From: Azolla caroliniana | Taxonomy: Eukaryota > Plantae > Polypodiophyta | DNA length: 23,083 nucleotides | Direction of reading: 5' to 3' | Assembly: GCA_043228905.1 (NCBI GenBank) | Contig: JBHGNT010000489.1 | Location: 1 to 23,083 of the forward strand | Shown: piece after piece, positions 1,962 through 23,083 of the stretch | Layout of the letters: every line of letters starts with the position of its first letter | Numbering within the stretch: the first letter of the stretch is position 1 | The notes under the pieces: generated by a model | Told to the model about the DNA's origin: nothing | What the model saw: the letters and a program-made list of their open reading frames with translations, nothing else | Databases searched by the model: none | Program-made: the position numbers and the translations under genes

Positions 1962-2399
1962 TATTAGAGATCTAAGTACTAAAGTAAGCTTACGATAAGG
2001 ATAAAGTAATGATAGGTAGAAAGGAGAAAGAGAAAGAAGGGTGTCGATCCACCCGACCACCCCCAAGCGAAGGGATCAAGACGGACTCGAGCCTCGATCG
2101 GCGTCCCATACCACCGTCGTGGCGTCGAGTCGTACCTGGTGCTGGCGCGCTCGCTACAAGAGTTGACCCACCACAAGAGCAGAGTCTCGATGTAGTCAAA
2201 AGATGATCCAATGAGGGTAGCTAGGCCTCTTATTTATAGCGATACCCAAGGCCCCCAGGCAAGTTCACACTTGACCTAATGGGTTGTCTCAATCCCGAGG
2301 ATTAAAAGTAATCCTCCCCTTCTTTACACTCTCGTTTAACCCTCACACTTATCCACGTGTATAGAATACTACGGTAAATTCTCACCACGGGATATTAAA
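1962..2399 (-). repeat. 5' LTR of element C (~438 bp, termini mutated)
   Basis: Plus strand TATTA...TAAA, each one substitution from TGTTA...TAACA; minus-strand TATA GCTATAAATA at 2231-2240; adjacent to the PBS. Confidence 0.65.
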
Positions 2400-5300
2400 T
2401 GGTCATGCCCGTAACACTAGCACTTTTAGATTCCGGAGCTAATTCATGTTTCATGGATCGAAATTTTGCCCAAGCTTCTCAGATATCCTTAAGAAAACTT
2501 CCTTGTCCCGCATCTGTAGTAGTCATTGATGGTTGTCCCATTGCTTCCGGGAATATTGTAGAAGAATCAGAACCCATTCAAGTTGTCCTAGGTAGTTTTG
2601 TGTGTGTAATATCATTTAATATAATTAGTAGTCGAGAGCATCCCATTGTCCTAGGATTACCTTGGTTTGAATTACATAATCCAGCCATAGATTGGAGAAC
2701 AAGAGAAGTCTGATATCGACCACCCCAAGAATCAACTCACCAAGTTTCGACCATTTCACTCCATCAACTACGCGAAGGACCCAAGGAGGCAATGTTCCTA
2801 TTTGCAATATCAGTACATCCTTCCAGCACTATTAAGAAGGACTACTCAGTACAACTTCCAGCAAAATATCATCCTTATGCCGATGTATTTGACAAGGTAA
2901 AAGCCGGTACCCTTCCTCATCACCGTCCCTATGACTGTCCCATCGATTTACAACCAGGAACCGAGCCACCATGGGGACCAATTTACAACTTGTCACCCAC
3001 CGAGTTAGAAGTCCTTCGAGCCTACATAGAGGAGAACTTGGCAAGCGGGTTCATCCGCCATTCGAAATCTCCGGCCGGTGCACCCATCTTCTTTGTCAAG
3101 AAGAAAGATGGCTCACTTCGTCTTGTCGTTGATTACCACGGATTGAATAAAGTCACCATCCGGAATAGGTATGCACTTCCTCTTATATCAAGTCTTTTAG
3201 AGCGAGTTAATGGTGCCAAGTTTTTTACTAAAATCGACCTACGAGGAGCGTATAACCTCGTGCGGATCTGACCGGGAGATGAGTGGAAAACCGCCTTTCG
3301 CACGCGGTATGGGCATTTCGAGTATACTGTTATGCCGTTTGGCCTAACCAATGCACCCGCAGTCTTCCAACACATGGCAAATGATATATTCAGAGACCTC
3401 TTGGATATCTGTTTGATCATTTATCTGGATGATCTATTGATTTATTCAAAGACCCAGGAAGAGCACGATTCTCATGTACTATTAGTACTAAAGCGACTCC
3501 GCGAGAATGGCCTTTATGCCAAGCTAGAAAAATGTACCTTTGACTGCAAGCAAGTGGAATTTCTAGGCTACGTCATCTCCTCAAAGGGCATCGCCATGGA
3601 TCCAGCTAAAATCCAAATTGTACTAGAGTGGCAAATTCCACGGTCGGTACGAGATGTACAATGTTTTCTAGGTTTTGCTAACTTCTACCGTAAGTTTATA
3701 CATGATTAATCGAAGATTATTTTACCTCTCACACAACTTACGAAGAAGGGCAAAGCATTTCTTTGGTCCATAGAAGCAGATATGGCTTTTCGGCATCTTA
3801 AGAAAGCCTTTACATCAGCACCGATTCTAGCTCATGTGGATACAAGCAAACCATTCATCATGGGGGCCGACGCATCAGATTTCGCCCTCGGTAGCATCCT
3901 TTCTCAACAAGGCGATAAAGAAGAGTTGCATCCGGTGGCTTTCCATTCGCGCAAATTCGATGTCGCAGAAATCAACTACGAAATACATGACAAGGAGTTA
4001 TTAGCCATCGTGGATTCATTTGTACAATGGCGGCATTTCTTAGAGGGCTCTCCACATCAGGTCATTGTCTTTAGCGATCATAAAAATCTTGCTTATTTTC
4101 AGAACGCTCGCGTAATAAATCGACGGCAAGCTCGGTGGGCGCAATTCCTCACGCGTTTCGACTTCAAAATCACATATCGACCGGGGAAGTAGCAAGGAAA
4201 AGCAGATGCACTATCACGGCGTTCATATCTTGCACCTCGTCCTGGTGACGCAATATTTGATAATCAAAAGCAAGTAATCTTGGGACCAACACGATTGCAC
4301 ACAACGCGGATTTTTCACACCCCGATGGATTCACGGATTACCGATGACATACGTGCAACCTTGAAGACGGATAGTTTTGCTCAAGACATCCTGGCGCACA
4401 TTGATACTTCTCGGGCATCCTGTTCTCAGTCTCAACAACCAGGTATTGACTACCGACAATTCGAATATCATGATGGTTTGTTATTCTTTAAAAAGCGCGT
4501 ATATGTCCCCGATTGCTCCTGTCGCCTTCAAATCGTCCAACATTGTCACGACACCCATACGGCGGGACATTTCGGTAGTACTAAGACATTGGAGCTAGTG
4601 CAGCGATCTTTTTGGTTGCTCCACATGCGCCGTTTTGTCGACGACTACGTTCGGACCTGTGATGCTTACTGTCGAGCAAAGATGCCACGACACCATCCAT
4701 ATGGCTTGTTGGAAACCTTACCGATTCCAACTAAGTCGTGGCAGTCTATTTGTCTTGATTTTATCACAGATCTGTCGGTCTCGAAGGGGTTCGATGCTAT
4801 CCTAACCGTCGTCGATCGATATATGAAGATGGCACATTTTGTGCCATGTACTAAAGCCATCACTAGCGAGGAAACCGCCGCTCTTGTTATGCGTGAGGTA
4901 TTTCCGCATCATGGCCTCCCAGACAGTATTATCAGTGACCGAGGCCCGCAATTTGTCTCCAAATTTTGGCAGCATCTCTTCAAGATGCTCAAGGTCTCCT
5001 GCAACCTCTCCTCCAGCTACCATCCTCAGACCGACGGGTAGGCGGAACGAACAAACCAAACGCTGGAGCAATATCTCCGGTGTTTCCTGAGTTATCAACA
5101 GGACGATTGGGCCGAGATTCTCCACTTTGCGGAGTTTGCGTATAATAATGCTATTCACTCCTCGACTCGGGTCTCCCCATTTTTCGTTTATACCGGTTTC
5201 CATCCTCGCTGGTCAGTGATCGACACTCCGGAGCTACCTACCAACCCTCGTGCCGAGGATCATATGGAGAGGCTACGCAAGATCCAGATGGATCTCTCTA

Positions 5301-5836
5301 CTCACCTTCGTCATGCTCAACACACACAGAAGACTTATGTGGATCGTCATCGGATTCCCTCCTCTTTTGCCATTGGAGATCAAGTATGGCTCTTACGTCG
5401 TCACATCAAGACTACTCGACCGTGCGACAAGTTGGATTATCGACGACTCGGTCCCTTCCGTATTACGGGTAAGATTAATGATGTCACCTTCCGCCTTGAT
5501 CTCCCTCCACAGCTTCAGATACATCCGGTTTTCCATTGTTCTCTTCTTGAACCTTATAAAGCAAACACCATTCCCGATCGTGTGACACCACCACCGCCCC
5601 CGCTGGAGTTGGACGCGGGTCCGGAGTATGAAGTTGCTGCCATCCTCGATTCCAAACTTGTTCGCAACAAACATTATTACTTGGTCGATTGGCTCGGTTA
5701 TAGTCCGAGCGAACGTACTTGGGAACCCGTCGAGCATGTTGCCAATGCACAAGATCTTCTTGCTGATTTCCACTGAAAGTATCCGGACAAACCCGGTCCG
5801 CAATTAGCGCCGACTCGTTCCACTCGTCGTCCTTAA
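2400..5836 (+). pseudogene. pol: Chromovirus pol polyprotein with six in-frame stops
   Basis: Six ORFs in one frame: protease ALLDSGA; RT ([17 protein letters not shown]); RNase H (DAS, EIHDKELLAI, DHKNL); integrase (H..GH zinc finger, D,D,E core, GPF); chromodomain EYEVAAILD...YLVDWLGY...TWEP. True stop TAA at 5834-5836. The ATG at 2399 is a junction artefact. Confidence 0.95.
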
Positions 5837-5847
5837 GAGGGAGATAG
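5835..5847 (+). promoter_or_regulatory. Polypurine tract of element A
   Basis: AAGAGGGAGATAG immediately before the LTR's TGTCA. Confidence 0.9.
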
Positions 5848-6271
5848 TGTCATGATATGGCAAGACTCGAACCCATGACCTTATGCTACATGGGTCGAGC
5901 TCTTACCATTAGACTATGAATTGTAATTTGTAGGATATTATTTTCATTTATACTTTATTATAGAAAATTGATGTATATTCCAAATCTCTCTGGAACATTC
6001 TAGAAGCTTCAGGATTATTCCTAAAAACACTATAAAAGGAGGCACAAGGCATTGTTTTGAAGCAAATTGGTTCAACACCAGTCTTAAGCCTCTTAGCCGA
6101 TTTGTAATTATCTTTCATATAATATAAGAGTTGCTGTCATCATCCTATCTCTCTCTCTCCTCTTCTCACTTCCTCTCTCTCGGGAATCTTACGCAGTCCT
6201 GTCCTCTTAGTACTAATAGTACTACTCTTCTTAGTACTAATTCCATCTCTGCTTTAGTACTATTCCTGACA
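5848..6271 (+). repeat. 3' LTR of element A (424 bp)
   Basis: TGTCA...TGACA termini, TATA CTATAAAAGG near 6030, TTCTAGAA motif; follows the PPT. Confidence 0.88.
5857..5923 (-). promoter_or_regulatory. tRNA-like Pol III A/B-box module inside U3 of LTR A, antisense
   Basis: Minus strand TAGTCTAATGG (5916-5906) and GGTTCGAGTC (5873-5864), starts 43 nt apart; no complete cloverleaf. Confidence 0.6.
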
Positions 6272-7990: not shown

Positions 7991-8024
7991 TTCAACGTAG
8001 TTCGCTGTGATCTCACAGCTATAA

Positions 8025-8036
8025 CCGGGCGTGCCA
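8025..8036 (-). promoter_or_regulatory. Primer-binding site of element B, tRNA-Arg type
   Basis: Minus strand ...GGTTAACA caatt TGGCACGCCCGG, directly upstream of gag. The tRNA assignment is from recalled plant tRNA-Arg 3' ends. Confidence 0.8.
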
Positions 8037-8053
8037 AATTGTGTTAACCATTC

Positions 8054-9206
8054 TGTTGGAGACACCTTTGATATGCCTACAAGCTATTGGTATCAAGGGA
8101 AGTGTAACATGAAGACTTGGGCACGAAGGTGTCGTTAGGGGAAGAAAATGGAGAGCATACCCGGAATAGAGCCCGGGTCGTATACGTAGTTGATGTTGGG
8201 AGACAGGTCCCTCCGGATGGGAAGGGAGAAGAACAGTGCCGACGAACAATCTCGGCCGAGGCCGAAACCGGATGAGGAGTACCTGGCTACGGATAGCCGG
8301 ATGGTGCAGGCCCGGTGTGAACTGGATGAGGAGTACCCGGCTACGGAGAGCCGGATGGTGCAGGACCGGTGTGAACCGGATGAGGAGTACCCGGCTACGG
8401 AGAGCCGGATGGTGCAGGCCCGGTGTGAACCGGATGAGGAGTACCCGGCTACGGAGAGCCGGATGGTGCAGGCCCGGTGTGAACCGGATGAGGAGTACCC
8501 GGCTACGGAGAGCCGGATGGTGCAGGCCCGGTGTGAACGGGATGAGGAGTACCCAGCTACGGAGAGCCGGATGGTGCAGAACCGGTGAGAACCAGATGAC
8601 GAGCACCCAGCTACGGAGAGTCGGATGGTGCAGAACCAGTGAGAACTGGATGAGGAGCACCCGGCTACGGAGAGCCGGATGACGCAGACCCGGTGTGAAC
8701 CGGAGGAAGAGACATATTCGTAAATATGTTTCTGAGAGCCCATCGAGGCTACATTTGTAAATAGCCGAAAAGTCATATTAGTATAAATATGACTTAGGGC
8801 AAACTTTTAGTGTTGTTGTTGTCATTTTCTTGTTGGTGCAAGAAGAAGAGAGAGCACGTAACAGTGTACAGAGAGAGAGAGAGAAAGAGGTCGATGCCTC
8901 TGTTGTAACGGCCGCCTGTGGCGAAGATCCTGAGCACGAGGTCGTTGCCTTCGTGAACTCACTGTTTTGTACATTCCAACTTAGTGATAGTTTACAACCT
9001 GTGGGCTGCCGTGGTTTTTCCCTCTTTGGGTTTTCCACGTAAACATTCTGTGTACCCTTTTCTCTCCTTTGTGTCGTGTGTTTTCGTTTCCTGTTTCCTG
9101 TGTATGAAAAGAAGCTTGGTTGAGGCCGAGCATTGGGTATAAGGAGCGTTGAGTTCCCGTCAAGAGTTGAGACCTTAGAAATGATGGCACACAGATGGGA
9201 ACAACA
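8054..9206 (+). mobile_element. Element G: solitary Copia-type LTR (~1.15 kb)
   Basis: TGTTG...CAACA termini, TATA GTATAAATA near 8781, GA tract, Copia-like motif CCGTGGTTTTTCCC...GGGTTTTCCACGTAAA near 9009-9043. Flanks CATTC and AGAGC do not form a TSD. Confidence 0.7.
8268..8699 (+). repeat. 8 x 54-bp tandem repeat in U3 of LTR G
   Basis: Unit CCGGATGAGGAGTACCCGGCTACGGAGAGCCGGATGGTGCAGGCCCGGTGTGAA. Confidence 0.95.
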
Positions 9207-9980: not shown

Positions 9981-10611
9981 GTGAGTGACCATGTGCAGTC
10001 CTCACCAGAAATAGGAGCACGGGTGAACGCGAGCAACCATGTGTGGTCCTCACCGGAGACTGCACACCAATGTGAGCGTGGGCAACCATGTTCAGTTCTC
10101 ACCGAAGACTGGAACACCAACATGAGTGTGAACGACCATGTGTGGTCCTCATCAAAGACTGGAACACTAACATGAGTGTGATCGACCATGTGCGGTCCTC
10201 ACCGGAGACCGAAACACCAACATGAGTGAACGACCATGTGTGGTCCTCACCAAAGACAAGAACACCAACGGACGTGAGCGACCATGTGCGGTCCTCACCA
10301 AGAACTAGAACACCAATGGATGTGAGTCACCATGTGCGATCCTCAGAGGAGACACGAACACCAACGGACATGAGCGACAATGTGTAGTCCTCACCAGAGA
10401 CACAAACACCAACGGGCGTGAGAGACCATGTACGGTCCTCACCGGAGACACGAACACCAACAGAAATGAGCGACCATGTGCGGTCCTCACCGGGAACTGG
10501 AACACCAACAGACGTGAGCGACCATGTGCAGTCCTCACCAGGAACTGGAACACCAACGGGCGTGAGCCACCATCTGCGGTCCTCACTGGAGACACGAACA
10601 CCAACGAACGT
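9981..10611. repeat. ~13 x 48-bp tandem array upstream of element D's PPT
   Basis: Unit GAGCGACCATGTGCGGTCCTCACCGGAGACTGGAACACCAACGGACGT; cut at 10611 by F1. Confidence 0.92.
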
Positions 10612-11697
10612 TGTCGTGATGTGGCGTGCTCGAGAGTGGGAAAAACCGGCGAAAGGGGGAGTCAAAAATGTGCATGTGCAATGTGTGTGCACACAAAGGC
10701 GATTAGTTGTGCATATGCAAACTAAAAGGGAAAAGAAAGGGTAGAAAGGATGTATAGAAGCTCGTGCAAAAAGTAAGAGAGAGGAGAGATAAAAGGTAGA
10801 GGGGAGACAGGCTAAGAATTTATAGAGATAGAATTATATATTATATAAGAGAGAGTTAATGGGCTAGTGGATAGTCACATTGACTTCTAGCTAGAGGTGC
10901 ACGGTTAAAAATTTAAGGAATTTTATTCCTTTTTTGCATTAAAGACAAAATTGGCAACCCCTCCTTTCTTTCTTTTTTCTATAAAAGGAGGTCGAGGGGG
11001 GTTCATTCGGGAGGACGTTTTGGGAGGAGGAGACTATCGTCTCTAAGGGCATTTAGTATTTATGTTTTGATTGAGCCGGTGGTTAGCTAGAAGTTGCTAT
11101 TGTAATCAAACCTTATTTATAAAGGGGCCGCTTGCGTTGGAGTTGAGCACGTATTTACTCCTTTGGCCGATATCATTCGTCTTCCTTCTTTCTTTTTTTC
11201 TTGTTCGTGTCTTCCTTGTACGTTCGGCCATCTTATGACGAGGGACCGTTTCAAGCGTGCCCATGCACCTCTCCTCCTCATAAAGACGTACAAGCATTCA
11301 TGTTTGTGTTATCGTCCCCTTTGATTCGTAGAGAGGATTCGTAGAGAGAGTTCGTAGAGTGGGTTCGAAGAGAGGATTCGTAGAGAGGATTCATAGAGAG
11401 GATTCGTAGAGAGAGTTCGTAGAGTGAGTTCGTAGACAGGATTCGTAGAGAAGATTCGTAGAGAGGATTTGTAGAGTGAGGATTCGTAGAGTGAAGATTC
11501 GTAGAGTGAGGATTCGTAGAGCGAGGATTCGAAGAGACAATTCATAGAGAGAATTCGTAGAGTGAGGATTCGTAGAGTGGGTTCGAAGAGAGCTTTATAT
11601 TTATAAGATTTAAAAGTAATAAATAAATATTTATTTATTTATCCCTTGAGTACTCCCTAGTCCAAGACCCTCGTGGTCCCGCCCAAGTAACATACGT
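10612..11697 (+). mobile_element. F1: LTR-like unit lacking its last 18 bp
   Basis: Starts TGTCGTGATG, TATA TATAAAAGG near 10980; colinear with 11698-12142 and 22021-23061. Confidence 0.75.
11323..11592. repeat. 13-15-bp minisatellite GATTCGTAGAG(TG)AG
   Basis: About 20 imperfect tandem units, present in F1 but not in F2. Confidence 0.9.
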
Positions 11698-12276
11698 TGT
11701 CGTGATGTGGCGTGCTCAAGGGTGGGAAAAACCAGCAAAAGGGGGGGTCAAAAATGTGCATGTGCAATGTGTGTGCACACAAAAGCGATTAATTGTGCAT
11801 ATGCAAAATAAAAACGAAAAGAAAGGGTAAAAAGGAGGTATAGAAGCTCGTGCAAAAAGTAGGAGAGAGGAGAGATAAAAGGTAGAGGGGAGACAGGCTA
11901 TGAATTTATAGAGATAAAATTATATATTATACAATAGAGAGTTAGTGGGCTAGTAGATAGTCACATTGACTACTAGCTAGAAGTGCACAGTTCGAATTTG
12001 GACTTACACTGCAGCGTGATTTAAGGAATTTAATTCCTTTTTCCTTGAAGACAAATTTGGCGACCCCCCCTTCTTTTTTTCATATAAAAGGAGGTCGAGG
12101 GGGGCTCATTCGGGAGGACGTTTTAGGAGGAGGAGACTATCGCCAATTTTCCTTCGAAGCTCTTCATCTCCTTATTCACCGCTTCTCTTCATCTCATACC
12201 CCTTCATCTCCCCATCATCACGTGCTCGTCTTATTCGCGTCGGCACTCGAATTGCTTGTGAGCCCAAGCTTCGTTT

Positions 12277-12710
12277 TGTTAACTCTTCGGGCCGGACAAT
12301 GGCCTAACACAGGGTGTCTACGTGAGACACTTCACCAAAGGGTGTTACGGCAACCGGATTAGACTTCAACGCTTAATCCGACTTAGTTAAGTTACTTAGT
12401 AGGATCGTCTTTCATAACACGCGTAAGATATAACAATTAAGACAGAATGGCAATTAACACAGAGAGATAACAACACTTAAGCTTTCATTAATTAACCGCG
12501 AACTATTACATTGTATCCGGGCCTTTAAATAGGTTTCCGGTCTGTATTACAAAACGGTGCCATCCGCACCTGTTCGGGATCGGTCCGGATCCGGAACGGC
12601 ATACCGATTCCGGTCTGTCCGTCCACACTCATAGCTTAATTACAACCACATTCCTACTACTTAATTAGCTCTCCGTTTCCCACTCTGGACTCCTTTGCCG
12701 GCCGGTAACA
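12277..12710 (-). repeat. 3' LTR of element E (434 bp)
   Basis: TGTTA...TAACA termini; about 15 mismatches to the other LTR by eye; minus-strand TATA-like CCTATTTAAAGG near 12522-12533. Confidence 0.95.
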
Positions 12711-12712
12711 CA

Positions 12713-12729
12713 TGGCACGCCCGTGGGAC
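12713..12729 (+). promoter_or_regulatory. Inverted tRNA-Arg primer-binding site at the position of the PPT
   Basis: TGGCACGCCCGTGGGAC, 2 nt from the LTR; first 11 nt identical to element B's PBS but on the strand opposite gag-pol. Confidence 0.8.
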
Positions 12730-12764
12730 AGTACCTTGTACGTCAAATCCACAACCGACCCTTG

Positions 12765-15747
12765 CTATTCTTCGTCCAAAATGTCCAGAATGCTTTGTTC
12801 GAGAGGCTCCAATGGTTCATCTGGAAGTGGTTGTTGTTGTTATTGTTGCTGCTCTGTTGCTGTCTGCTGCGGCGAATCCGTTGGTGGTTGTTGCGGCTGC
12901 TCCTCCGTTTGTGGCTCTGACCCCAGCATCTCCGTCGTTGCTCCCTGCGTCAAAGTGGTCTCCGGTTGACTGGTTCCCGGCTAGCCCTCAACCGGCGACG
13001 GTTCCTCATCACTAAGGTTAACCGTTGTCGCTTCCCGTGCTTTTTCTTCCCGTACCCGGGACCGCTCGTAGCTTTCATACTGGATTTGAGCATCCAGCCT
13101 ATCATCGTCCAGCTGAGCTACGAGCTGCCTGACCTACGCCAGTTGTTCATCTGCCAGGAATTGGAAGTCGTCGACCAGCTCGTCCCGTATGGCGGTGAAG
13201 TCCTCGAAAGTCAACGTATAACAGTCATCTCCTTCCTTCCGCCGGTTTGCCACATCCGCTCGTAGCAACTGGAGTTCCGCCGCGTTTTGTGCCCACTTTG
13301 TCCACCATTTTACGGAGCTTTCATCAATCAAGTGTTTCGTCTGATCCAGCCATGCCCGGAGGATGGACTGAATCCGGCTCGTTCCCAATTGCGATTTTGT
13401 TTCCACCGCTTGCCGTTCCTCCTTCAGTTGTTTGATGATTTTGACGTTGTCCTCCGCCTGCGCCTTGTAATGCGTCAATTGCCTTTGATATGTACTTTGT
13501 AATTTCTGCAATATTGTTGACGCTCTCTCTTTGTCTTCCTGCTGCTGCCTCTGGAGCTCCATCCGGACCTTCTCCACCTCTTGTATTTTCCGCTTGTTCG
13601 TCGGCGATCGCCGTCGAGGCCCGATCAACTGCCTGTTGGAGCTCGGCCATCCATTCTTTATGCTCCGTTTCCAGCCGTTTGTAGTCCCAGTGCAGGTGCT
13701 TAAAATCATCCATCTTTTGCTTGAGCCATGCGTTGATCTGACGACGGGCCCGGTCCTCGCGGTCCTTCTGCTGGCGGAGCTCTTCCTTTAGCCGTTCAAT
13801 CTCTGTTTCCGCCGTTTTCCACAGCTTGTCCTTTTCCTGCAGCACTTTGTCTTTCTCCTCCTTTAGCCGGTCGTATGCTTGATGGCCTTTCCGGAGGCTC
13901 TCCTCTGCCCGGCGAAGGTTCTCAGCAGTCTTCTTTAATTCGGCTTCGGCCGCCGTCTTCAATTCTCGTTCACGGCTCCTTAGCGCTTCTTGTGCGGCAA
14001 GTTCCTCTCTCAATTCCGCAAGCTCTCGAGCTTGCGCCGCATCTCTCGCCGGAACGGTTTCCGTTGCCGGGGTCTTATTGCTATGTACAGGTCGTTCCGT
14101 TTCTTTATTCTGTACACTTACCGGAGTCACCGGTGATTGGATCCGTATTTTGGCCATCTCTGTCGTGACCTGATCCAAATCTTTTTCAAGGCACCGGATT
14201 CTGGACCGGGCCATCTCTAGTTGTTCGGTTGTGACGAGCAACCGTTCGCTTTGCGTTCTTTCTTCCGCCTCTATATACCCCACTGCTCCGGCTATCTGTT
14301 CGCCTATCCACCAGAGCCACAGGCTACCGGTGCCTTGTTGTGCTTGCATGGAGGTTTGATGGATGGGCTCACTTGTAGAGGGGTGGTCCCGCCTGGTTGC
14401 ACGGAGTTGCAGTTCCTTTTCTGCCCGTGGACCAACCTACTGTCCTGGTTCCCCTTGCGCTTCTTCTTGGCTGACCGAGGGAGGCTGCAGTGACCTTTTC
14501 GGCTCGGGCGGGATGGGGCTTGCCGGTGTTGCCGGTGGTGCCGGGGCTTCTGTTTCCGGTGCCATCTGCACCGGTTCCGGTTCCTTCCCTGGCGTAGGAG
14601 TCTCAGTATGGGGAGCCGGTGTTCCCTCTGTCTGAGGGTCCGAACGTTTCCCGGCTGCCTCAACGGTCCTTGCCGACAACCGTCGCTGGAGGTGCTCCAT
14701 AGGCTCCTCCTCTATTTCCTCCTCCTCAGCTCCGGCATTGAGTTTTGCCGCCAAGGGGTCCGCTTCTCGATTCACCGGTCGGCGGAGTGTGACCTTTACA
14801 GGCCGTGCCGGTGGTTCCTCCTGCGCCTCCATTGGGCGCTTCCGGCTGCCGCTTCCTGCTGCCGCCTGTTCTGCATCCGCCACCTTTCCCTTGGTGGCCT
14901 TCGAGGCCAACAGCTGTTGCCGTTTGGAAGCCGTCCTTGGTGTGCCGTCCGGCACTCTTCCTCGCTTCTTGGGCTGGACGGTCTGAACGGGTGGCACCAG
15001 CAAGGTGAGCCACTGCGTTACGGCGTGCCATATCCTTCGTCCGTCTCGGCCTTCTTTGTCGTCTTTGCCTCTGACGATCTTGATCGCCGCACACAACCCG
15101 TCTGCAATCAATACCGGCCAATCCACCTTGATCCCTTCATAGGTGGCGATGATCATCCCTGCCCGGTTCTGCGGCATGACAGGGGGTCTAGGGTATATGT
15201 GGCCGTATTCATGGAGCACACGAGCAATTTCGCGGAACAGCATATCTCCGCCGCCCTGTGTCCGGTAGCCCTTGCTAGCTAGAGAGTACTCACCAAAATA
15301 CCTGATGAGTTGCTCCGGGGTTGGATTGTCGATCGTGAGTATGCCTCCCTCCGGAAGGCCTGTTAACGCTCGAATCGCCTTTGCCGTTATGACCTCTGTA
15401 TCGATTTCCTTGATCACTTTGTCGGCTTCTTTGTGTGGAGGTACTTCCATCATCATCAAGAAGCCCTCGAGCCCGTGTTGCTTCAGCCATGTCTTGGCGG
15501 CTTCCGATAGCGTTTGCGGGTCCATCTCTGTGTCGGGGTCTAATTGCGATGACGAGGATGGATGGTGATGAGAGCGGGGTTGAGAAAGAGAGAGTTCAGA
15601 AGGCGGGGGTTCTCTATGCGCAGGTTCTCGTCTGATGATCTTGTAGCGTTTCGGTGCTTCTGTGCTCCTGGGTTCGCGAAAGTAGAGGGTCTCTACGCGC
15701 AATGGTTTTTGTCTGTGCATTCTGGCACCTTTTTCGAGTTTGTGCAT
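12765..15747 (-). pseudogene. Extra ORF (~990 codons) downstream of pol: helical N-terminal domain, P/E-rich linker, long coiled coil, acidic Q-rich tail
   Basis: ORFs 14437-15747 and 13324-14349 are in frame; one frameshift near 13600 leads into 13134-13709, which continues in frame through stops to ...SILDILDEE* at 12765. Confidence 0.75.
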
Positions 15748-15931
15748 ATCGCGTACTTAAAATAGCATTATGTCCTGTGGTGGCGCTTTAAATGCCCACT
15801 ACGTACCTTTTCGCTCCACGCTCTTTCATCCATTCATTCCTCGCTTTTGCATGACTTTTTTTTCTTTTCTTTTTTTTTCAGTTATTATTATTATTAGTGT
15901 GACGTCACATGTCCGTTGGTCCTCCCGGACC

Positions 15932-18900
15932 CTAACCGGCCTCATTCTCTCCGGTTCCCGGCTTGCCGTCTTTGCCGTCTTGGTGGTTGCCGTCCGTCCT
16001 TTGCTCAAACGGGTTCTTAGGCATCGGTCCTCTATATGCCTTTAACCGGAATCCGTTGACCCATTTGCCCAGCACTTCGCCGGCAAGTGTCCCCAACTGG
16101 TAGGACCCATTATACTCCCGTGTTAGCCAATATGGTCCGGTCCATCTAAACCTTAGTTTACCCGGCATCTTGCCCATCCGGGTTTGGAATACTAACACTG
16201 GTTTGCCGATTGCGAACATTTTTTCGTTACCTTTCCTGTGCCGGTCGACGAATGCTTTCCGTCGTCGTTGCTCCAATTCTAAATGTAGGATGTTGGCCAA
16301 CCGTTGTTCCTCCAGCTCACACAGCGCTGTCAACCTTATTGTCTCTGACTCCTTCTCGTTCAGCCGTTCTCGTAGCTGGATCCGTAAGCTAGGTACTTGA
16401 AATTCTACCGGCATGACCGCCTCGAGTCCGAACGCCAACCGGAACGGTGTTGTTCGGATGCTCGTTTTGTATGCCGTCCGGTATGCCCAAAGCGCGCTAT
16501 GTAGCTTTGTGTCCCAATCCGTCCGGTTCTCGTTGACGATCTTCCGAAGGATGTTCTGGAGCGTCTTGTTTGTTGATTCCGCTAATCCGTTCGCCTGTGG
16601 ATAGTAAGGTGTGCTTCGTTTGTGGACCACGGCATAGAAGGTCGTTAGGCTTTCCACTACTTGTCCGAGAAAGTGCCCCCCTTGGTCACTTATCAATTCA
16701 ATGGGGCATCCGTAACGGCACCAGATGTACTCATATAGAAACTTTGCCGTTGACGCAGCGGTGTTATCCCGTAAAGCTTTGGCCTCCACCCATTTCGTGC
16801 AGTAATCCGTAGCAACGATAACGTACCAATTACCCGTTCTCATTGCCGGTGGCTTGAACGGTCCTACAAAGTCCAGCCCCCACTTTTGGAATGGCTCGAG
16901 TGGTAGTACCGGCTGGTGTGGCATACGAGCCTGCTCCGTTGGCTGGCCCATTCTCTGGCATAGGTCACATTCTTTTGCGTATCGTACCGCATCTCTTAAT
17001 GTCGTTGGCCACCATAGGCCACTTTGCCATATTTTTCTGGTTGTCGCATCTCCGACATAGTGACCTCCGGCAACTCCGCAGTGGGCTTCCCTCAGTATCA
17101 GTTCCTTTTCATCGCTGCGCACCGCCCGTCTCCATATGCCGTCAGTGCCCTTGTGGTACAGTGTGTCTTGCAGTAAACAGAAATGTCGGCTTTGTACCGC
17201 CAGGCGTTTCCGTTCGTCCCGGTTCAGCTCTTCCGGAGGCAGTCCTGTGCTCAGAAACTGGTGCATATTTGTGAGCCACTTGTCTTCCTGGGCCACTGTC
17301 TCATCTGTTGCCGTCTCCGAGTGACTCGAAACAGCTCCGCATCCGGAAACTCATCCGGTACTCCGTCACCCGTCTCTCCGGACTCTAATCGGCTTAAGTA
17401 ATCCGCTACGGCATGCTGTATACCAGGTCGGTGGAATATTTCAAACTCGAACTCCTGTAACAATAAGGTCCACCGGGCCAATTTGCCGGTGAGTGACGCT
17501 TTGGACACCAGGTAAAGGAGTGCCGAATGATCTACATGGAAGGAAAACTAACTTCCCAATAAATAGTGCCGAAACTTTGTCACACTGTAGATCATTCCTA
17601 GAGCTTCCCGTTCCGTAGTAGAGTAGTTCCATTCTGCTTGGGATAGCTTCCGGCTGGCATAGTACACTGGCCGGTACCACTTTGGTTCCGTAAGCTGCAT
17701 CAGTACGCTTCCAATTGCGATGTCGGAGGCGTCCACGAAGACGTGAAATTCTTTACTCCAATCTGGAGGTTGTACTACCGGTGCCTGCGACAATAGTACC
17801 TTGAGGGCCTTATACGCCCTATCCTCATTATCGGTCCATTGGAATGGTGTCCGATGTACGGCGGTATGCAACGGTGTAGCCAGGTCGGCCAAGTATCGGA
17901 GCATCCGGCTGTGCCACCGGATCTGGCCTAAGAACCGGCTCAATGCCTTTGCCGTTGCCAGCGCCGGTGCTTCTAATATGGCTTTCACTTTGTCCGGGTC
18001 GACTGCAATACCTTCCTGGCTCACGATATGTCTTAATAAAGTTCCACTGGACACGCCAAATACACACTTTGCTGGATTCAAGCTTAGCCGGTACGCTCTA
18101 CACTTTTCTAGACAAAGACGGAGGTACTGAAAATGGTCCTCCTCCCGGCTATAGACAGCGAAATCGTCAAGGAAAACCTGCATAAAAGCCGGTATATATT
18201 CACCAAAGATTTCCATGATGATTCGTTGAAACGTTGCCGGTGCCGTTTTGAATCCGAACATCATCACCACGGCCACAAACACCCCCCATTCGGTGACGAA
18301 TGCCATTTTCTCCAGGTCGTCGGGGCGCATCCGGATCTGATTATACCCGCTGAATCCGTCTAGGAAGCTATAGACCTCATGGCCGGCGACGGCATCCAAC
18401 ACTCCATCTGTGAACGGAAGTGGAAACGCATCCGTTACCGTAGCCGCATTGAGTTTCCGGTAGTCCACGCAAACTCGAATTTTTCCGTTCTTCTTTGGTA
18501 CGACTACGATGGGGCTCAGCCATGTCGCTTTCTTTACCGGACGGATAAAGCCAACTCTTAGCAGTTTGTCGATTTCTTCCTTGACCTTGGCAGCATAATT
18601 GGGATTCATCCGGTACCGTCTTTGTGCCACTGGTTTTGTGTCCTTGCTCAAGTGCACTTGATGTTGGTATAACTGAGGGTCGAGTCCTCGCATATCTTTG
18701 TATGACCAGGCAAACACATCCCGGAATTCCGTGAGAAGTGTTATCATCGCCTTTTTGTCTTCGGACTTCATCTGCTTGGCGATGTGCACCAGTTTTGCTT
18801 CATCCGTGGTGCCTAAATTCACCTGTTCTAGTTGCGATGCTTTTACGCGCTGTGAAACGGCCATTTCCCGTTCCAACGCTTCCTGCGCTTGCCGTAACTC

Positions 18901-21354
18901 CCGGATTGCGTCTTTATCCGGTTCTGCTTCCGCCTCTTCCAGTTGCGGTAAGTATGGTGCTACGGCTTCGGCAATGTCAATTTCGAAGAGGGGTATGATA
19001 TTCAGGTTTTCCTGCAGGTATTGAGCTTCTTCTTCGTCCGCTAACCCTTCTAGCATGTTGACGCATTCCGCATACAACGATGTACATTTCTTGCCAGTGC
19101 TCGTCCTTGGCTATGTTGGTACCCGTACCTTGGCTTTTCCTCCCCGGAAGGTAATTATATTTTTTCGCCAATTCTGTTTGATATGTGCCGTTTTCAACCA
19201 TGGCCGCCCCAACAATAGCGGGTATGCGCCTTGTGCCTGTAATTGTAGCACTACGGCCGAGATGTGAAATGTATGCTCGCCGACGGTGACTTCAAATTTC
19301 CGTATTAATCCTGTCGGCCGCACTGAGCTTGTATCGGCCATCCGCAACCAGAACGGACACGGCTCCCACTCGTGGATTCCTAGGTCCTCACACGTCCGGA
19401 AGCTTATTACATTTACCCCGGAGCCTCCGTCTATAACTGTGCCGGGGAGTTCTTTCCCTTTTACAATGGCAGTGATTACCGGACTGCTGGTGTCTACCAC
19501 TGTTGGTCCCTCCTCCGGATTCGAGAAGAGTACCGGTGCCGGTGATGGTTCTCCTGCCGTCATGGCCGTCTTCAGTCCTTCCGTGAATCTTGGCACGAGT
19601 TGTAGGAGTCTTCCTAGTGGTAACGTAATCTGGCATTCTTGCAACGCCTGCCATGTCTCGTTCTCGGAGTGACTACCGCCGGCAAGCCCTGCGGTGTTCT
19701 CCTTTTGCTGCTGTAAGTCTGTGACATTCTGCTCGTTTTCTTTCTTTACCCATTCCGTTGCTTTTTTCCGGATGGTCTCCTGTGTCTCCCATTCTTTGGC
19801 CATGCCCTTCGACCTTGTGGTCACCTACTGCAGGTCTGCCACCTCAGGGACTACCATATTTACCGCCGGTCGTTTTTCATAGCTCTTCACCGGGCATTGG
19901 TTACTATAATGGCCTTCCTGTCGGCAGTAATAGCAGTAGGCTTTCCGGGCATTGCTAGATTTGGCATTGTCTGTTGTACCCGGGGCAGGTCCTACGGTAC
20001 GCGCGGGGTTTTGTACCGGTTGGCTACTTGGAGCTCCTTGTTCCGGATCCCGGGGGTAGCCGCCCTTTTTAAAATGCCGTTTTTTGTTATAGCTCTTCTT
20101 ATTACGGTACTCTTGACGGGGTTGCCCGTTATATCTACCGTATTCCTCCCATTGTTGACGATACCCGGGGGAGTGCTCCCGGTCGTACTGTTCGTATCGT
20201 CTATTGTAATCCTGGTACCGATTATGCCGGTCATAGTTCTCTCACTGATCACCGTACCGGACATCATTTTCCCGTTGATCGCCATACCGGACATCATTTT
20301 CCCGTCGCTCGCCATACCGGACATCCTGTGCTGGTCGGTCACGGTCCATTCGCCGCCAGTGTTCGTCTTCTTCATCCCGGCTGCTACGTGGCTCAATTTG
20401 TCGGACGGGTGGTGCTTGCCGAGTCAACAGATTATACTCGCACCTATCCGTCATATGGCTCTTGGATTGACAGATTACACATTGCGTCCTCATAGTGCAT
20501 TCTAGAGCCGAGTGTCCGGAATTCATGCAGGTTGTGCACTGTATTCCTTGCCGAAACCGGAGGTCTTCATCGGACGGTAACGCCCGTTGAAGTGCGCCTA
20601 GTGTGAGCCAGGAGCTTGTCTTTTCCATCTCTTTCACTCGGTCAATGACCTGGTCGATGGTACTTGTGCGGAAATCGATTACCGTGCAAACCGTGCGTAG
20701 GGGTTCCCGGAGCACGTTTAGGAATACCGTCCGTAATTCCTCCTCCGGGGGTGCACGGGCAAGCTGACTATGCATCCGTTGAAACCGGATGACAAATTGG
20801 GGAATGCTCTCCCCTGCCTCTTGCCGGATGGTATAAAATAAGCCTACCATTACGGTCTGATCCACCTCCTTTTGAAAAAAATGCATGAATTTAGCTTTTA
20901 AATCTGCAAAGGTGTTGATGGTAAATGGGTCCTGCGTCCGGCGCCATCTTGCTGCTGGTCCCTCCAATGTGACACCAAATTCCGCTATCTTAGAGTGTTC
21001 TTCTTCTTCTGGGGTCAATCGCTAGGACACATGGTTGGCTTCCCATGTCTATTCAAAGGCGTGCACATGAGCTTCCGCGTCCGGATCATCTCTATACTTG
21101 GAGTACTGGAACGGCATGTCGTCGTTCGGTATCGGTGCGCGGGCTGGTAGTGTTGGTGCTCGTTCCGGAATTTTCTCCAGTGTCGGTGGTCTTTCCCGAT
21201 TTGATTCCAGTGTCGGTTGTTTCTCTTCCTTTGGTGACGGAGGCCTCTCCTCTTCGACTTCCGGTGTCAAAGGTCGTTCTTCTTCTGCTGGCACTTCTGG
21301 TTCCGGTGTCGGTAAGGTATCCGATCCTTCGTCTTCCGGTCCGTCCGTCCACAC
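15932..21354 (-). pseudogene. gag-pol: gag-pol polyprotein of element E (single frame, about six stops, one frameshift near 17310)
   Basis: Capsid domain; three CCHC knuckles (CTTCMNSGHSALEC, CVICQSKSHMTDRC, CYYCRQEGHYSNQC); protease VIDGGS; RT FLDD; RNase H DAS/ERE/DH; integrase HHCC, D,D,E core and GPY motif. Confidence 0.95.
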
Positions 21355-21442
21355 TCATAGCTTAATTACAACCACATTCCTACTACTTAATTAGCTCTCC
21401 GTTTCCCACTCTAGACTCCTTTGCCGGCCGGTAACACATGGC
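21334..21442 (-). repeat. Internal 103-bp copy of the LTR U3 tip plus 6 nt of pre-3'-LTR sequence, replacing the PBS
   Basis: 21334-21436 matches 12608-12710, and CATGGC at 21437-21442 matches 12711-12716. Confidence 0.92.
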
Positions 21443-21451
21443 CAAAAACTG

Positions 21452-21885
21452 TGTTAACTCTTTGGGCCAGACAATGGCCCAACACGGGGTGTCTACGTGA
21501 GACACTTCACCAAAGGGTGTTACGGCAACCGAATTAGACTTCAACGCTTAATCCGACTTAGTTAAGTTACTTAGTAGGATCGTCTTTCATAACACGCGTA
21601 AGATATAACAATTAAGACAGAACGGCAATTAACACAGAGAGATAACAACGCTTAAGCTTTCATTAATTAACCGCTAACTATTACATTGTATCCAGGCCTT
21701 TAAATAGGTTTCCGGTCCGTATTACAAAACGGTGCCATCCGCACCTGTTCGGGATCGGTCCGGATCCGGAACGGCATATCGATTCCGGTCCGTCCGTCCA
21801 CACTCATAGCTTAATTACAAGCTCATTCCTACTACTTAATTAGCTCTCCGTTTCCCACTCTGGACTCCTTTGCCAGCCGGTAACA
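21452..21885 (-). repeat. 5' LTR of element E (434 bp)
   Basis: Direct repeat of 12277-12710; followed on the minus strand by CAGTTTTTGGC, a truncated PBS start. Confidence 0.95.
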
Positions 21886-22177
21886 CGTTTGTTCGACATT
21901 GCTCCACCCCGTTCGTCGTTGCGAGCCCGTGTGCTCGCCGTTCGGGTGGTCGTGGTTCGTTTGGATTGGCATTTTGGTGGTGCTTGTGTGTTCATCTTCG
22001 CCGTGTTTGGATTTGCCTTTGTCTCTAAGGGCATTTAATCTTTATGTTTTGATTGAGCTTGTGGTTAACTGTAAGTTGCCATTGTAAACAAAACCCTATT
22101 TTATAAAGGGTCCTCTTGCGTAGGAATTGAACATATATTTGTCTCTTTGGCCAATATCATTCCTGTTTCTTTATTCG

Positions 22178-22808
22178 TGTCTTTCTTGTACATTCGGCCG
22201 TCTTGTGACGAGGGGACCGTTCGGGCTTGCCCATGCACCTCTCCTCCTCATAAAGGCGTACGAGCATTTGTGTGTGTGTTTGTGTCTTCCTTGTACATTC
22301 GGCCGTCTTGTGACGAGGGGACCGTTCGGGCTTGCCCATGCACCTCTCCTCCTCATAAAGGCGTACGAGCATTTGTGTGTGTGTTTGTGTCTTCCTTGTA
22401 CATTCGGCCGTCTTGTGACGAGGGAACCGTTCGGGCTTTGCCCATGCACCTCTCCTCCTCATAAAGGCGTACGAGTATTTGTGTGTGTGTTTGTGTCTTC
22501 CTTGTACATTTGTCCGTCTTGTGACGAGGGGACCGTTCGGGCTTGCCCATGCACCTCTCCTCCTCATAAAGACGTAAGAGCATTTGTGTGTGTGTTTGTG
22601 TCTTCCTCGTACGTTCGGCCGTCTTGTGACGAGGGGACCATTCGGGCTTGCCCATGCACCTCTCCTCCTCATAAGGCGTACGAGCATTTTGTGCATGGGT
22701 TTTGTGTCTTCCTCGTACGTTCGAGGTCTTGTGACGAGGGAGCGTTTGAGCGCGCCCATGCACCTCTCCTCCTCATAAAGACATACAGACATTCGTGTTT
22801 GTGTTATC
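22178..22808. repeat. 6 x ~105-bp tandem repeat in F2
   Basis: Unit GTGTCTTCCTTGTACATTCGGCCGTCTTGTGACGAGGGGACC...GAGCATTTGTGTGTGTGTTT; single copy in F1 near 11207-11310. Confidence 0.93.
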
Positions 22809-23083
22809 GTCCCCTTGTGCATTCATGTTGCGTGGTCATCTTGCTTGTACCTGTTTGGTTACTTGGCTCGTACGATGATCTCGGAAGGTCGACGAGTCGT
22901 GATCAATGAGAGCCACCGGCCTCACAAAGCAAAGGGCAACGAGACCTTGCTCGGGAAGGGGTCGGGAAGTAGTATTGTCGTAAAGCAAACCTCGGGTCTT
23001 CTCTATCCCTTGAGTACTCCCTAGTCCGAGACCCCCGTGGTCCCGCCCAAGTAACACACGTGCGCGAAACTTCGTGACAACGC

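Follow-up and report, generated by a model that had tools for sequence, protein, structure and literature searches.

A tRNA-like sequence occupies the position of the polypurine tract in an LTR retrotransposon of Azolla caroliniana and in related elements

The stretch of DNA analysed here (the window, 23,083 nucleotides of a contig of Azolla caroliniana) carries on its minus strand an LTR retrotransposon, referred to as E, in which a gag-PR-RT-RH-INT region is followed by an extra ORF (table 1). Its two LTRs differ at 15 sites and the AAACG target-site duplication (TSD) is found on both sides; the matching LTRs and flanks indicate that E is a single integrated unit. In the Pfam domain search of the coding region neither a chromodomain nor an archaeal RNase H (aRH) was found, and no Pfam family reached the cut-off in the extra ORF, which is 61–62% identical to that of the related locus L011. 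Among named sequences, those closest to the E reverse transcriptase (RT) come from Adiantum, a fern, and Riccia, a liverwort (about 45–56%). A second element of the window, relative B, shows 43% identity to E in gag, and its 3′ end lies outside the window.

Table 1. Features of element E, and the primer-binding site of relative B, in the window
Feature	Position	Strand	Remark
Left target-site duplication AAACG of E	21886..21890	-	
5′ LTR of E, TGTTA...TAACA, TATA-like CTATTTAAAGG near 21706	21452..21885	-	434 bp
CAGTTTT-TGGCCA-TG: 5′ spacer, 6 nt matching tRNA CCA from both sides, 3′ spacer	21437..21451	-	
Second LTR start, 103 nt, breaking into the gag leader at a short repeat GGACCGGAA	21334..21436	-	
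gag (Retrotrans_gag, zf-CCHC), protease, RT, RNase H and integrase of E	15935..21333	-	interrupted by stops and frameshifts
Extra sense ORF of E, broken, partly coiled-coil-like	12765..15756	-	stop codon 12767-12765
GTGGATTTGA, resembling the tRNA-Arg(UCU) T-arm 5′ strand and T loop	12743..12752	-	
GTAC-AAG-GTAC hairpin where the tRNA T loop would sit	12731..12741	-	
GTCCCAC-GGGCGTGCCA, sense copy of a tRNA-Arg(UCU)-type 3′ end minus one base, at the PPT position	12713..12729	-	17 nt
Spacer TG (other strand: CA after TAACA)	12711..12712	-	2 nt
3′ LTR of E, TATA-like motif at about 12531	12277..12710	-	434 bp
Right target-site duplication AAACG of E	12272..12276	-	
Relative B: spacer CAATT and PBS TGGCACGCCCGGT after the LTR end	8024..8041	-	

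The polarity of the LTRs of E is minus, as the first-pass annotation had proposed. In detail, a TATA-type motif on the coding strand was found at LTR positions 159–219 in nine of the 15 LTR sequences examined and is missing there in five, while a TATA motif on the opposite strand is absent from the LTRs of E, L011 and L008. The motif is palindromic in the LTRs of L003 and L007, and L037 has the palindromic form only. Plus-oriented LTRs were therefore dropped for E, being contradicted by the strand of the TATA motif. The extra ORF or its stop region extends in sense up to the 3′ motif described below in loci L011, L022, L033, L041 and L047. Together with the minus polarity, this places the motif before U3, in the position of the polypurine tract (PPT).

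On the minus strand of E, the sequence entering the 3′ LTR reads GTCCCACGGGCGTGCCA (12729–12713), followed by TG (12712–12711) and by the LTR from 12710. The CCA end of this motif precedes the LTR by exactly 2 nt (12712–12711), just as had been noticed initially. In the 15 nt that precede the 3′ LTR there are 8 purines in E and 9 in the distant relative L051. In contrast, among nine control gypsy elements with clear LTR pairs (two of them belonging to one family), at least 12 of 15 are purines in seven, and 9–10 in the other two. In all 18 sequences compared, the best 12-nt purine window of the 62 nt upstream of the LTR holds 8–11 purines and is located 23–50 nt away from the LTR. A chromovirus within the same window keeps its PPT at 5835–5847. 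Thus, the lack of a PPT in E, a further point of the annotation, is upheld by the comparison with these controls, and the observation at the 3′ site is confirmed: the PPT is absent and a tRNA-like stretch is in its place. Based on the missing PPT, E is filed as a variant of Ty3/gypsy rather than as a canonical member. Apart from this, the weak purine runs of the two remaining controls (L069, 12617–12631, and L072, 12726–12740) belong to gypsy elements that are unrelated.

The motif had been described as an inverted match of 12 nt to the primer-binding site (PBS) of B. The match is real, with a length of 11 nt (8036–8024). Its exact 10-mer occurs twice in the window, at the PBS of B and at the 3′ site of E. 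A scan of the window for this 10-mer is by itself not significant (three matches with at most one mismatch, equalled by 15 of 100 shuffles); its significance comes from the fixed position beside the LTR, since the chance of an 11-nt match within 0–7 nt of an LTR is ~2e-6. The motif was correctly seen at the PPT position but is longer than first stated, and it also includes the hairpin and the T-arm-like half listed in table 1.

The resemblance to the 3′ end of a tRNA-Arg, also put forward at the outset, was borne out, in the form of tRNA-Arg(UCU), by comparison with a tRNA-Arg(TCT) on a viral contig, a proxy that may not equal the tRNA of the host; a plant tRNA-Arg(UCU) sequence was not found in the literature searched. 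This proxy ends in GTGGGTTCGAGTCCCAC-A-GGGCGTG-CCA, and the motif of the elements equals the 3′ end of this viral-contig tRNA without the variable base. The upstream half has the form GTGG(G)ATT(C/T)GA in the elements and is parted from the 3′ half by a hairpin at the position of the T loop. A tRNA gene was called by ARAGORN in neither the window nor any of 23 element loci, and Rfam gave no match at 12650–12850; on these negatives, the motif is not a tRNA gene and this candidate was ruled out.

The hairpin was examined in 16 of 23 junctions, near-duplicate and truncated rows being excluded. Its 4 bp are paired in 95% of the cells of this alignment. One pair is G-C in eight rows and A-U in seven, and there is an additional C-G to U-A change; the shuffle control for the pair counts ignores the relatedness of the rows. 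The T-stem-like helix is paired in 71%. RNAalifold favours a different fold of the same alignment, without two-sided changes.

The 3′ junction of E recurs outside this copy. Contigs from four of the 24 listed runs, belonging to four studies, were placed on both E junctions (two runs of organism A, one of organism B and one leaf metagenome). In these runs the bin with the motif has a summed contig depth 7–25 times that of the adjacent internal bins, which is not a copy number; it is the deepest bin in three runs and the second deepest in X1. Within 12681–12744 there were no substitutions among the 40 rows listed of 92, and the starts of other LTRs join the same motif as loose ends.

A metagenome scan with a 17-letter pattern (LTR start, spacer and proximal 10 nt of the motif) retrieved 48 loci, in which the conservation of the proximal 10 nt is by construction. 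The distal seven letters lie outside the pattern and read GTCCCAC, or a variant with up to three mismatches, in 22 of the loci: GTCCCAC in 13, GTCCCAT in five, GTTTCAT in two, ATCCCAC in one, and cut by the contig edge in one. None of the 22 has the full spacing of the tRNA. The remaining 26 were set aside: 25 are chance matches and L024 is a junction of the 5′-PBS type; in a further motif-pattern search three of four matches were chance bacterial ones. Judged by LTR start and upstream DNA, the 22 loci fall into at least six groups, between which identity is mostly 45–65% (shuffled sequences: mean 54%, maximum 62%). As some loci are nearly identical and contigs may be chimeric across the motif, it is the groups that count and not the rows. 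The spacer differs in L039, with 5 nt between CCA and LTR. The group of L003, L007, L015 and L020 has no pol of its own within its short contigs, and the pol matches in L011, L012 and L034 were assigned to neighboring elements. Among viral contigs neither a copy of the motif nor a close RT was present, and the related search gave distant RTs only.

Several minor features of these loci can be added. The LTRs of L003, L007, L015 and L020 share U3 but come in two versions with different ends (374 and 493 bp), after which different PBSs follow, and L020 carries an antisense stretch resembling the extra ORF. In L008 (1671–2872, oriented) a 1.2-kb imperfect inverted repeat bears two head-to-head 3′ motifs, being either real or an assembly artefact. 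In the window, a repeat starting with TGTTACTTGGGCGGGAC (23061–22999 and 11697–11635, minus strand) resembles the LTR start of L023 and L037, both of which bear the 3′ motif; it is possibly a further family of the E lineage.

A distant relative with a comparable 3′ end is L051, one of the eukaryotic contaminants picked up by the RT profile scan of prokaryotic assemblies. It is a 13.7-kb element with LTRs of 1.65 kb, a gag, and a pol fused to a long extension; its RT is 65% identical to that of E, and its pol extension is weakly similar to the extra ORF (22% over 281 aa, E 0.04). No aRH was matched by Pfam, and the LTR has a TATAAAA-type motif on the coding strand. In L051 the 3′ LTR is preceded, in this order, by GGGTT, a hairpin of 8 bp with an unrelated sequence, CCACCAGGTGTGCCA / CTCCACCAGGTGTGCCA and a spacer of 2 nt. 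Aligned in register with the viral-contig proxy tRNA, this site agrees with it at 13 of 18 letters (P ~3e-5). L051 is a single copy on a contig chimeric with bacterial DNA, its LTRs are 93.5% alike and its flanks (CAATA/ATATA) are unmatched.

A quick RT tree with 55 rows, built without REXdb references, groups E with L051, P0001, P0005 and P0007 (99% SH-aLRT), apart from the aRH-bearing clade, the chromoviruses and a clade with two PITA proteins. L052, L054 and the stretches of G002, G003 and G005 were also considered as informants of the 3′ end, and none reaches a 3′ LTR of the E lineage. In L054, a relative with 57% identity over 200 RT residues, a PBS of the TGGCGCCG type is located at 479–503 and the contig stops before the 3′ end. 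Contaminants of this kind are many in the RT scan (245 RT stretches); L051 and L052 are chimeric contigs in bacterial metagenome-assembled genomes, where bacterial genes are joined to plant-like retrotransposon DNA.

The same junction in four runs, the 22 loci in at least six groups and the related form in L051 show that the 3′ feature of E is common to its lineage and not an accident of a single copy. A one-off rearrangement in this copy of E, which the annotation had named among its refuting cases, or an assembly artefact is therefore a negligible explanation, even though the 5′ end of this very copy is rearranged.

At the 5′ side, a tRNA PBS follows the LTR in L011, L041, L003, L007, B and L051, and it is replaced in E. 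L011 and L041, whose LTRs are ~75% similar to those of E, have a CAGTTTT spacer and then the PBS TGGCGACCA(C/T), an arrangement matched by two contigs of run X4 and five of run X5. The PBS is likewise TGGCGACCAC in L003 and L015, and it is TGGCACGCCC in L007 and B. That of L051, TGGCGACTCCGCTGGGGA, is the exact reverse complement (18 of 18) of the plant iPBS primer 2395, as this primer is given in the available text of PMC11680832. Hence, three types of 5′ PBS accompany a single, UCU-like kind of 3′ site. The proposal of the annotation that the same tRNA serves both ends in E is not supported on this point: the PBSs of L011, L041 and L051 correspond to other tRNA ends, and the PBS changes while the 3′ site stays UCU-like. 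The PBSs of the TGGCGAC type presumably match other tRNA-Arg species.

In E itself the letters TGGC are indeed present after the 5′ LTR (21444–21441), where they had been taken as a mirror of the PBS of B, but they are part of an LTR–LTR junction and no intact PBS exists. The inner LTR piece of 103 nt agrees with the 3′ LTR at three sites and with the 5′ LTR at one. TGGCCA can be divided between a PBS, which begins with TGGC, and the 3′ motif, which finishes in GCCA; were it a random internal deletion, both breakpoints would fall so near the two CCA positions with a probability of ~3e-7. CAGTTTT-TGGCCA-TG is likely a fossil end-to-end cDNA junction, as judged from one event: a linear cDNA joined end to end and later recombined into the E locus would directly explain it, and the inner piece siding mostly with the 3′ LTR fits a recombined LTR–LTR junction. 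If this reading of the single event is right, the left end of the cDNA would have reached at least CA-TG, within the CCA of the motif. The junction does not separate a tRNA primer from a primer of element RNA. As a side observation, the LTR of L039 also breaks off at the GGACCGGAA repeat.

The starting point for the interpretation is given by the observed anatomy and polarity of E, the conservation of the 3′ site over unrelated LTR groups and in a distant clade-mate, the covarying hairpin and a 5′ PBS that corresponds to different tRNA ends. As U3 begins 2 nt after CCA with no adjoining purine run, the primer of the plus strand must end at about CCA. This primer defines the start of U3, so that it should be either a host tRNA annealed there or element RNA surviving there. 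The balance of the evidence tips slightly towards the former, that is, a host tRNA-Arg (or a 3′ fragment of it) which would anneal to the minus-strand DNA at the 3′ site of E and prime the plus strand.

According to this reading, the minus strand would begin in the usual way, from a first tRNA at the 5′ PBS. RNase H would then clear the RNA, self-folding of which may help, and the minus-strand DNA would expose TGGCACGCCC-GTGGGAC, the looped-out hairpin and a second short site. A second tRNA, which would end in GGGCGUGCCA, could pair on either side of the hairpin and be extended through TG-U3-R-U5. Both tRNAs would be removed by RNase H and integrase would trim after TAACA at each end, both ends reading TAACA-CA. 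The one-base gap would be inherited, because the internal site is always copied from the genomic RNA and never from the tRNA.

Predicted structures are consistent with such priming. When the 3′ end of the viral-contig proxy tRNA is cofolded with the minus-strand site of E, 17 bp are formed, the hairpin is looped out and ~9 further bp follow; a similar three-way junction with a looped-out hairpin is predicted for L051 (the energies use RNA parameters for an RNA–DNA hybrid). The constancy of a UCU-like 3′ site next to a varied 5′ PBS, and the letters matching CCA from both ends in the E junction, would also point to a tRNA. On the contrary, C>T changes are tolerated in the distal 7 nt (seven of the 22 loci, with GTCCCAT or GTTTCAT) though they break the pairing with the tRNA.

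Taken as a whole, the reading that we hold to be just on the probable side is that of a land-plant Ty3/gypsy clade without a PPT, in which host tRNAs would start both strands, often a pair of distinct tRNA-Arg species. A split site with a three-way junction would catch the second tRNA, the two cDNA ends would be mechanistically symmetric, and TGGCCA would be a fossil of two tRNA-defined ends.

The strongest rival, which seems rather unlikely, is a primer provided in cis: the tRNA-like RNA of the element would refold into a hairpin resistant to RNase H, be held by its last 10 nt and be cut after CCA, acting as a tRNA-mimicking substitute of the PPT. For each of the 18 sequences the plus-sense RNA of the motif region is predicted to fold into a hairpin (-12 to -24 kcal/mol) and, with RNA parameters, it is more stable than the minus-sense fold in 17 of them, an advantage that suits this rival and tRNA priming equally. 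GTGGGAT pairs fully with GTCCCAC in the E group, the C>T changes leave G-U pairs on the plus strand, and no second tRNA would have to be packaged. However, C>T is also the usual decay of methylated DNA, and a GC-rich 10-mer of mixed composition is an ordinary substrate of RNase H. Moreover, the long stem is weak in L051, where GGGTT and the tRNA register are nevertheless kept, and a likeness to a tRNA end, beyond that of any hairpin, is not obviously required.

Explanations beyond these two and an antisense reading are, even taken together, distinctly unlikely. Among them, the motif could have another role (in packaging or dimerisation, as a small-RNA decoy, or as a captured piece of tRNA), with the plus strand starting from an unspecific RNA remnant. 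The hairpin could serve as a protein-binding site and two of the nine controls show that purine runs may be weak; still, a fixed LTR boundary is not expected from unspecific priming, and CCA lies 2 nt from U3 in E, in the 22 loci (where the scan pattern fixes it) and, independently, in L051. This role is thus considered improbable.

Slightly less probable again is a reversed or two-way logic of the LTRs, in which an antisense RNA begun in the 3′ LTR would use the site as its first-strand PBS. The opposite strand does read as a textbook TAACA-CA-TGG PBS, and its match to the tRNA is 17 of 18 as compared with ~10 nt for the E-type 5′ PBS. Against this, the TATA evidence given above for the coding strand (nine of 15 LTRs, none opposite in E, and the TATAAAA-type motif of L051) and the PBS upstream of gag in L051 and B speak for the sense direction. 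As the other end is also devoid of a PPT, both strands would still need priming of the tRNA type.

A pairing of the 3′ motif with the 5′ PBS, circularising the RNA or self-priming the minus strand, had been offered in the annotation as an alternative and is very improbable. PBSs of the B type (B, L007) do form 10–11 bp with the motif (-23 to -25 kcal/mol), but those of the E type (L011, L041, L003, L015) reach only -8 to -10 kcal/mol and that of L051, where PBS and 3′ motif lie within one element, -16 kcal/mol with its own motif. This poor pairing removes it as a general function, it was rejected for the E type on these energies, and it leaves the priming of the plus strand unexplained.

In the canonical cycle the minus strand starts from a tRNA at the PBS, and the plus strand from a PPT that lies just upstream of U3 and resists RNase H, as outlined in the available text of PMC5371799. 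In the parts of PMC5371799 and PMC10886601 consulted, Ty3 and Ty1 have bipartite tRNA sites engaging the T arm, and the PBS of Ty3 is not copied from the tRNA. As far as these descriptions go, Ty3 has its second tRNA site within U3, on the strand that also carries the PBS, and its plus strand starts from a PPT, whereas in E the site is on the opposite strand, at the position of the PPT, which is absent. tRNA-derived sequence inside LTR elements, as in E, is also known from the Helenus and Ajax TRIMs; in Helenus, unlike E, it lies within the LTRs as a Pol III promoter and both PBS and PPT are kept (PMC10886601, text as available).

The following comparisons with plant lineages refer to the portions of PMC6317226 consulted. 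E is a non-chromovirus Ty3/gypsy element; like the plant elements of this kind (Athila, Tat = Ogre/Retand/TatI-III, Phygy, Selgy), it has no chromodomain and an extra ORF 3′ of pol. Its 5-bp TSD is shared with Athila, Ogre and Retand and differs from the 4-bp TSD of Phygy and Selgy. The PBSs of the E relatives, which we take to be of arginine type, are as in Ogre, Retand and TatIII. With Athila, E has in common the lack of a chromodomain and of an aRH together with the 5-bp TSD, but the PBS of Athila is Asp/Asn/Ala whereas those of the E relatives are of the TGGCGAC or TGGCACG type. Tat elements carry an aRH; E and L051 have no Pfam match for one, and membership in Tat was rejected. Phygy has a 4-bp NCGN TSD and no extra ORF, as opposed to the 5-bp TSD and 3-kb extra ORF of E, and on these two characters membership in Phygy was rejected too. 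With respect to the tRNA-Trp PBS of Phygy, the isotype comparison of relevance is the label R or W, which the consulted part of PMC4724089 gives to a human look-alike of the TGGCGACCAC PBS, identical to the TGGCGAC type in its first 11 letters.

The self-priming chromoviruses Tcn1 and Tf1 have a chromodomain, which E has not. Like the primer in cis considered above, Tf1/Tcn1 and TAR use an element-encoded RNA; theirs serves the minus strand and is cut from the 5′ end of the RNA, whereas a primer in cis would concern the plus strand (PMC6317226, same portions). In those portions the PPT is given as the general case and no lineage without it is recorded, and nothing on such an arrangement was met in the available text of PMC11963269. 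A PPT-less LTR element primed by two tRNAs was not described in the literature searched; Repbase and most subscription papers were outside this search and an earlier description may exist.

The use of a tRNA at the PBS and of a PPT for the plus strand is a near-universal rule of LTR elements and retroviruses. An element-encoded, tRNA-like primer is found in Cer7 of Caenorhabditis elegans, for the minus strand. If either of the two leading mechanisms holds, the rule is broken and E represents a new variant of LTR replication, with a bearing on the choice and removal of primers by RNase H and on the origin of the PPT. The one-base gap of the element is a natural barcode, by which tRNA and element RNA can be distinguished at circle junctions or at the ends of the cDNA. 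These families are present in high copy, and annotation software that expects a PPT would overlook them or give them the wrong orientation.

Concerning the rest of the window, the chromovirus mentioned above is a separate element (2399–5850, plus strand) with PR, RT, RH, INT and a chromodomain (coding to 5776) and an ordinary PPT. Its 3′ LTR interrupts the gag-pol region of B near 6260, and its RT is 80% identical to that of the element in L034. Tandem arrays are located at 8158–8751, 9981–10657, 11310–11592 and 22122–22816, with units of 54, 48, 13–15 and 105 bp, respectively, and the 105-bp unit has a single look-alike at 11187–11323.
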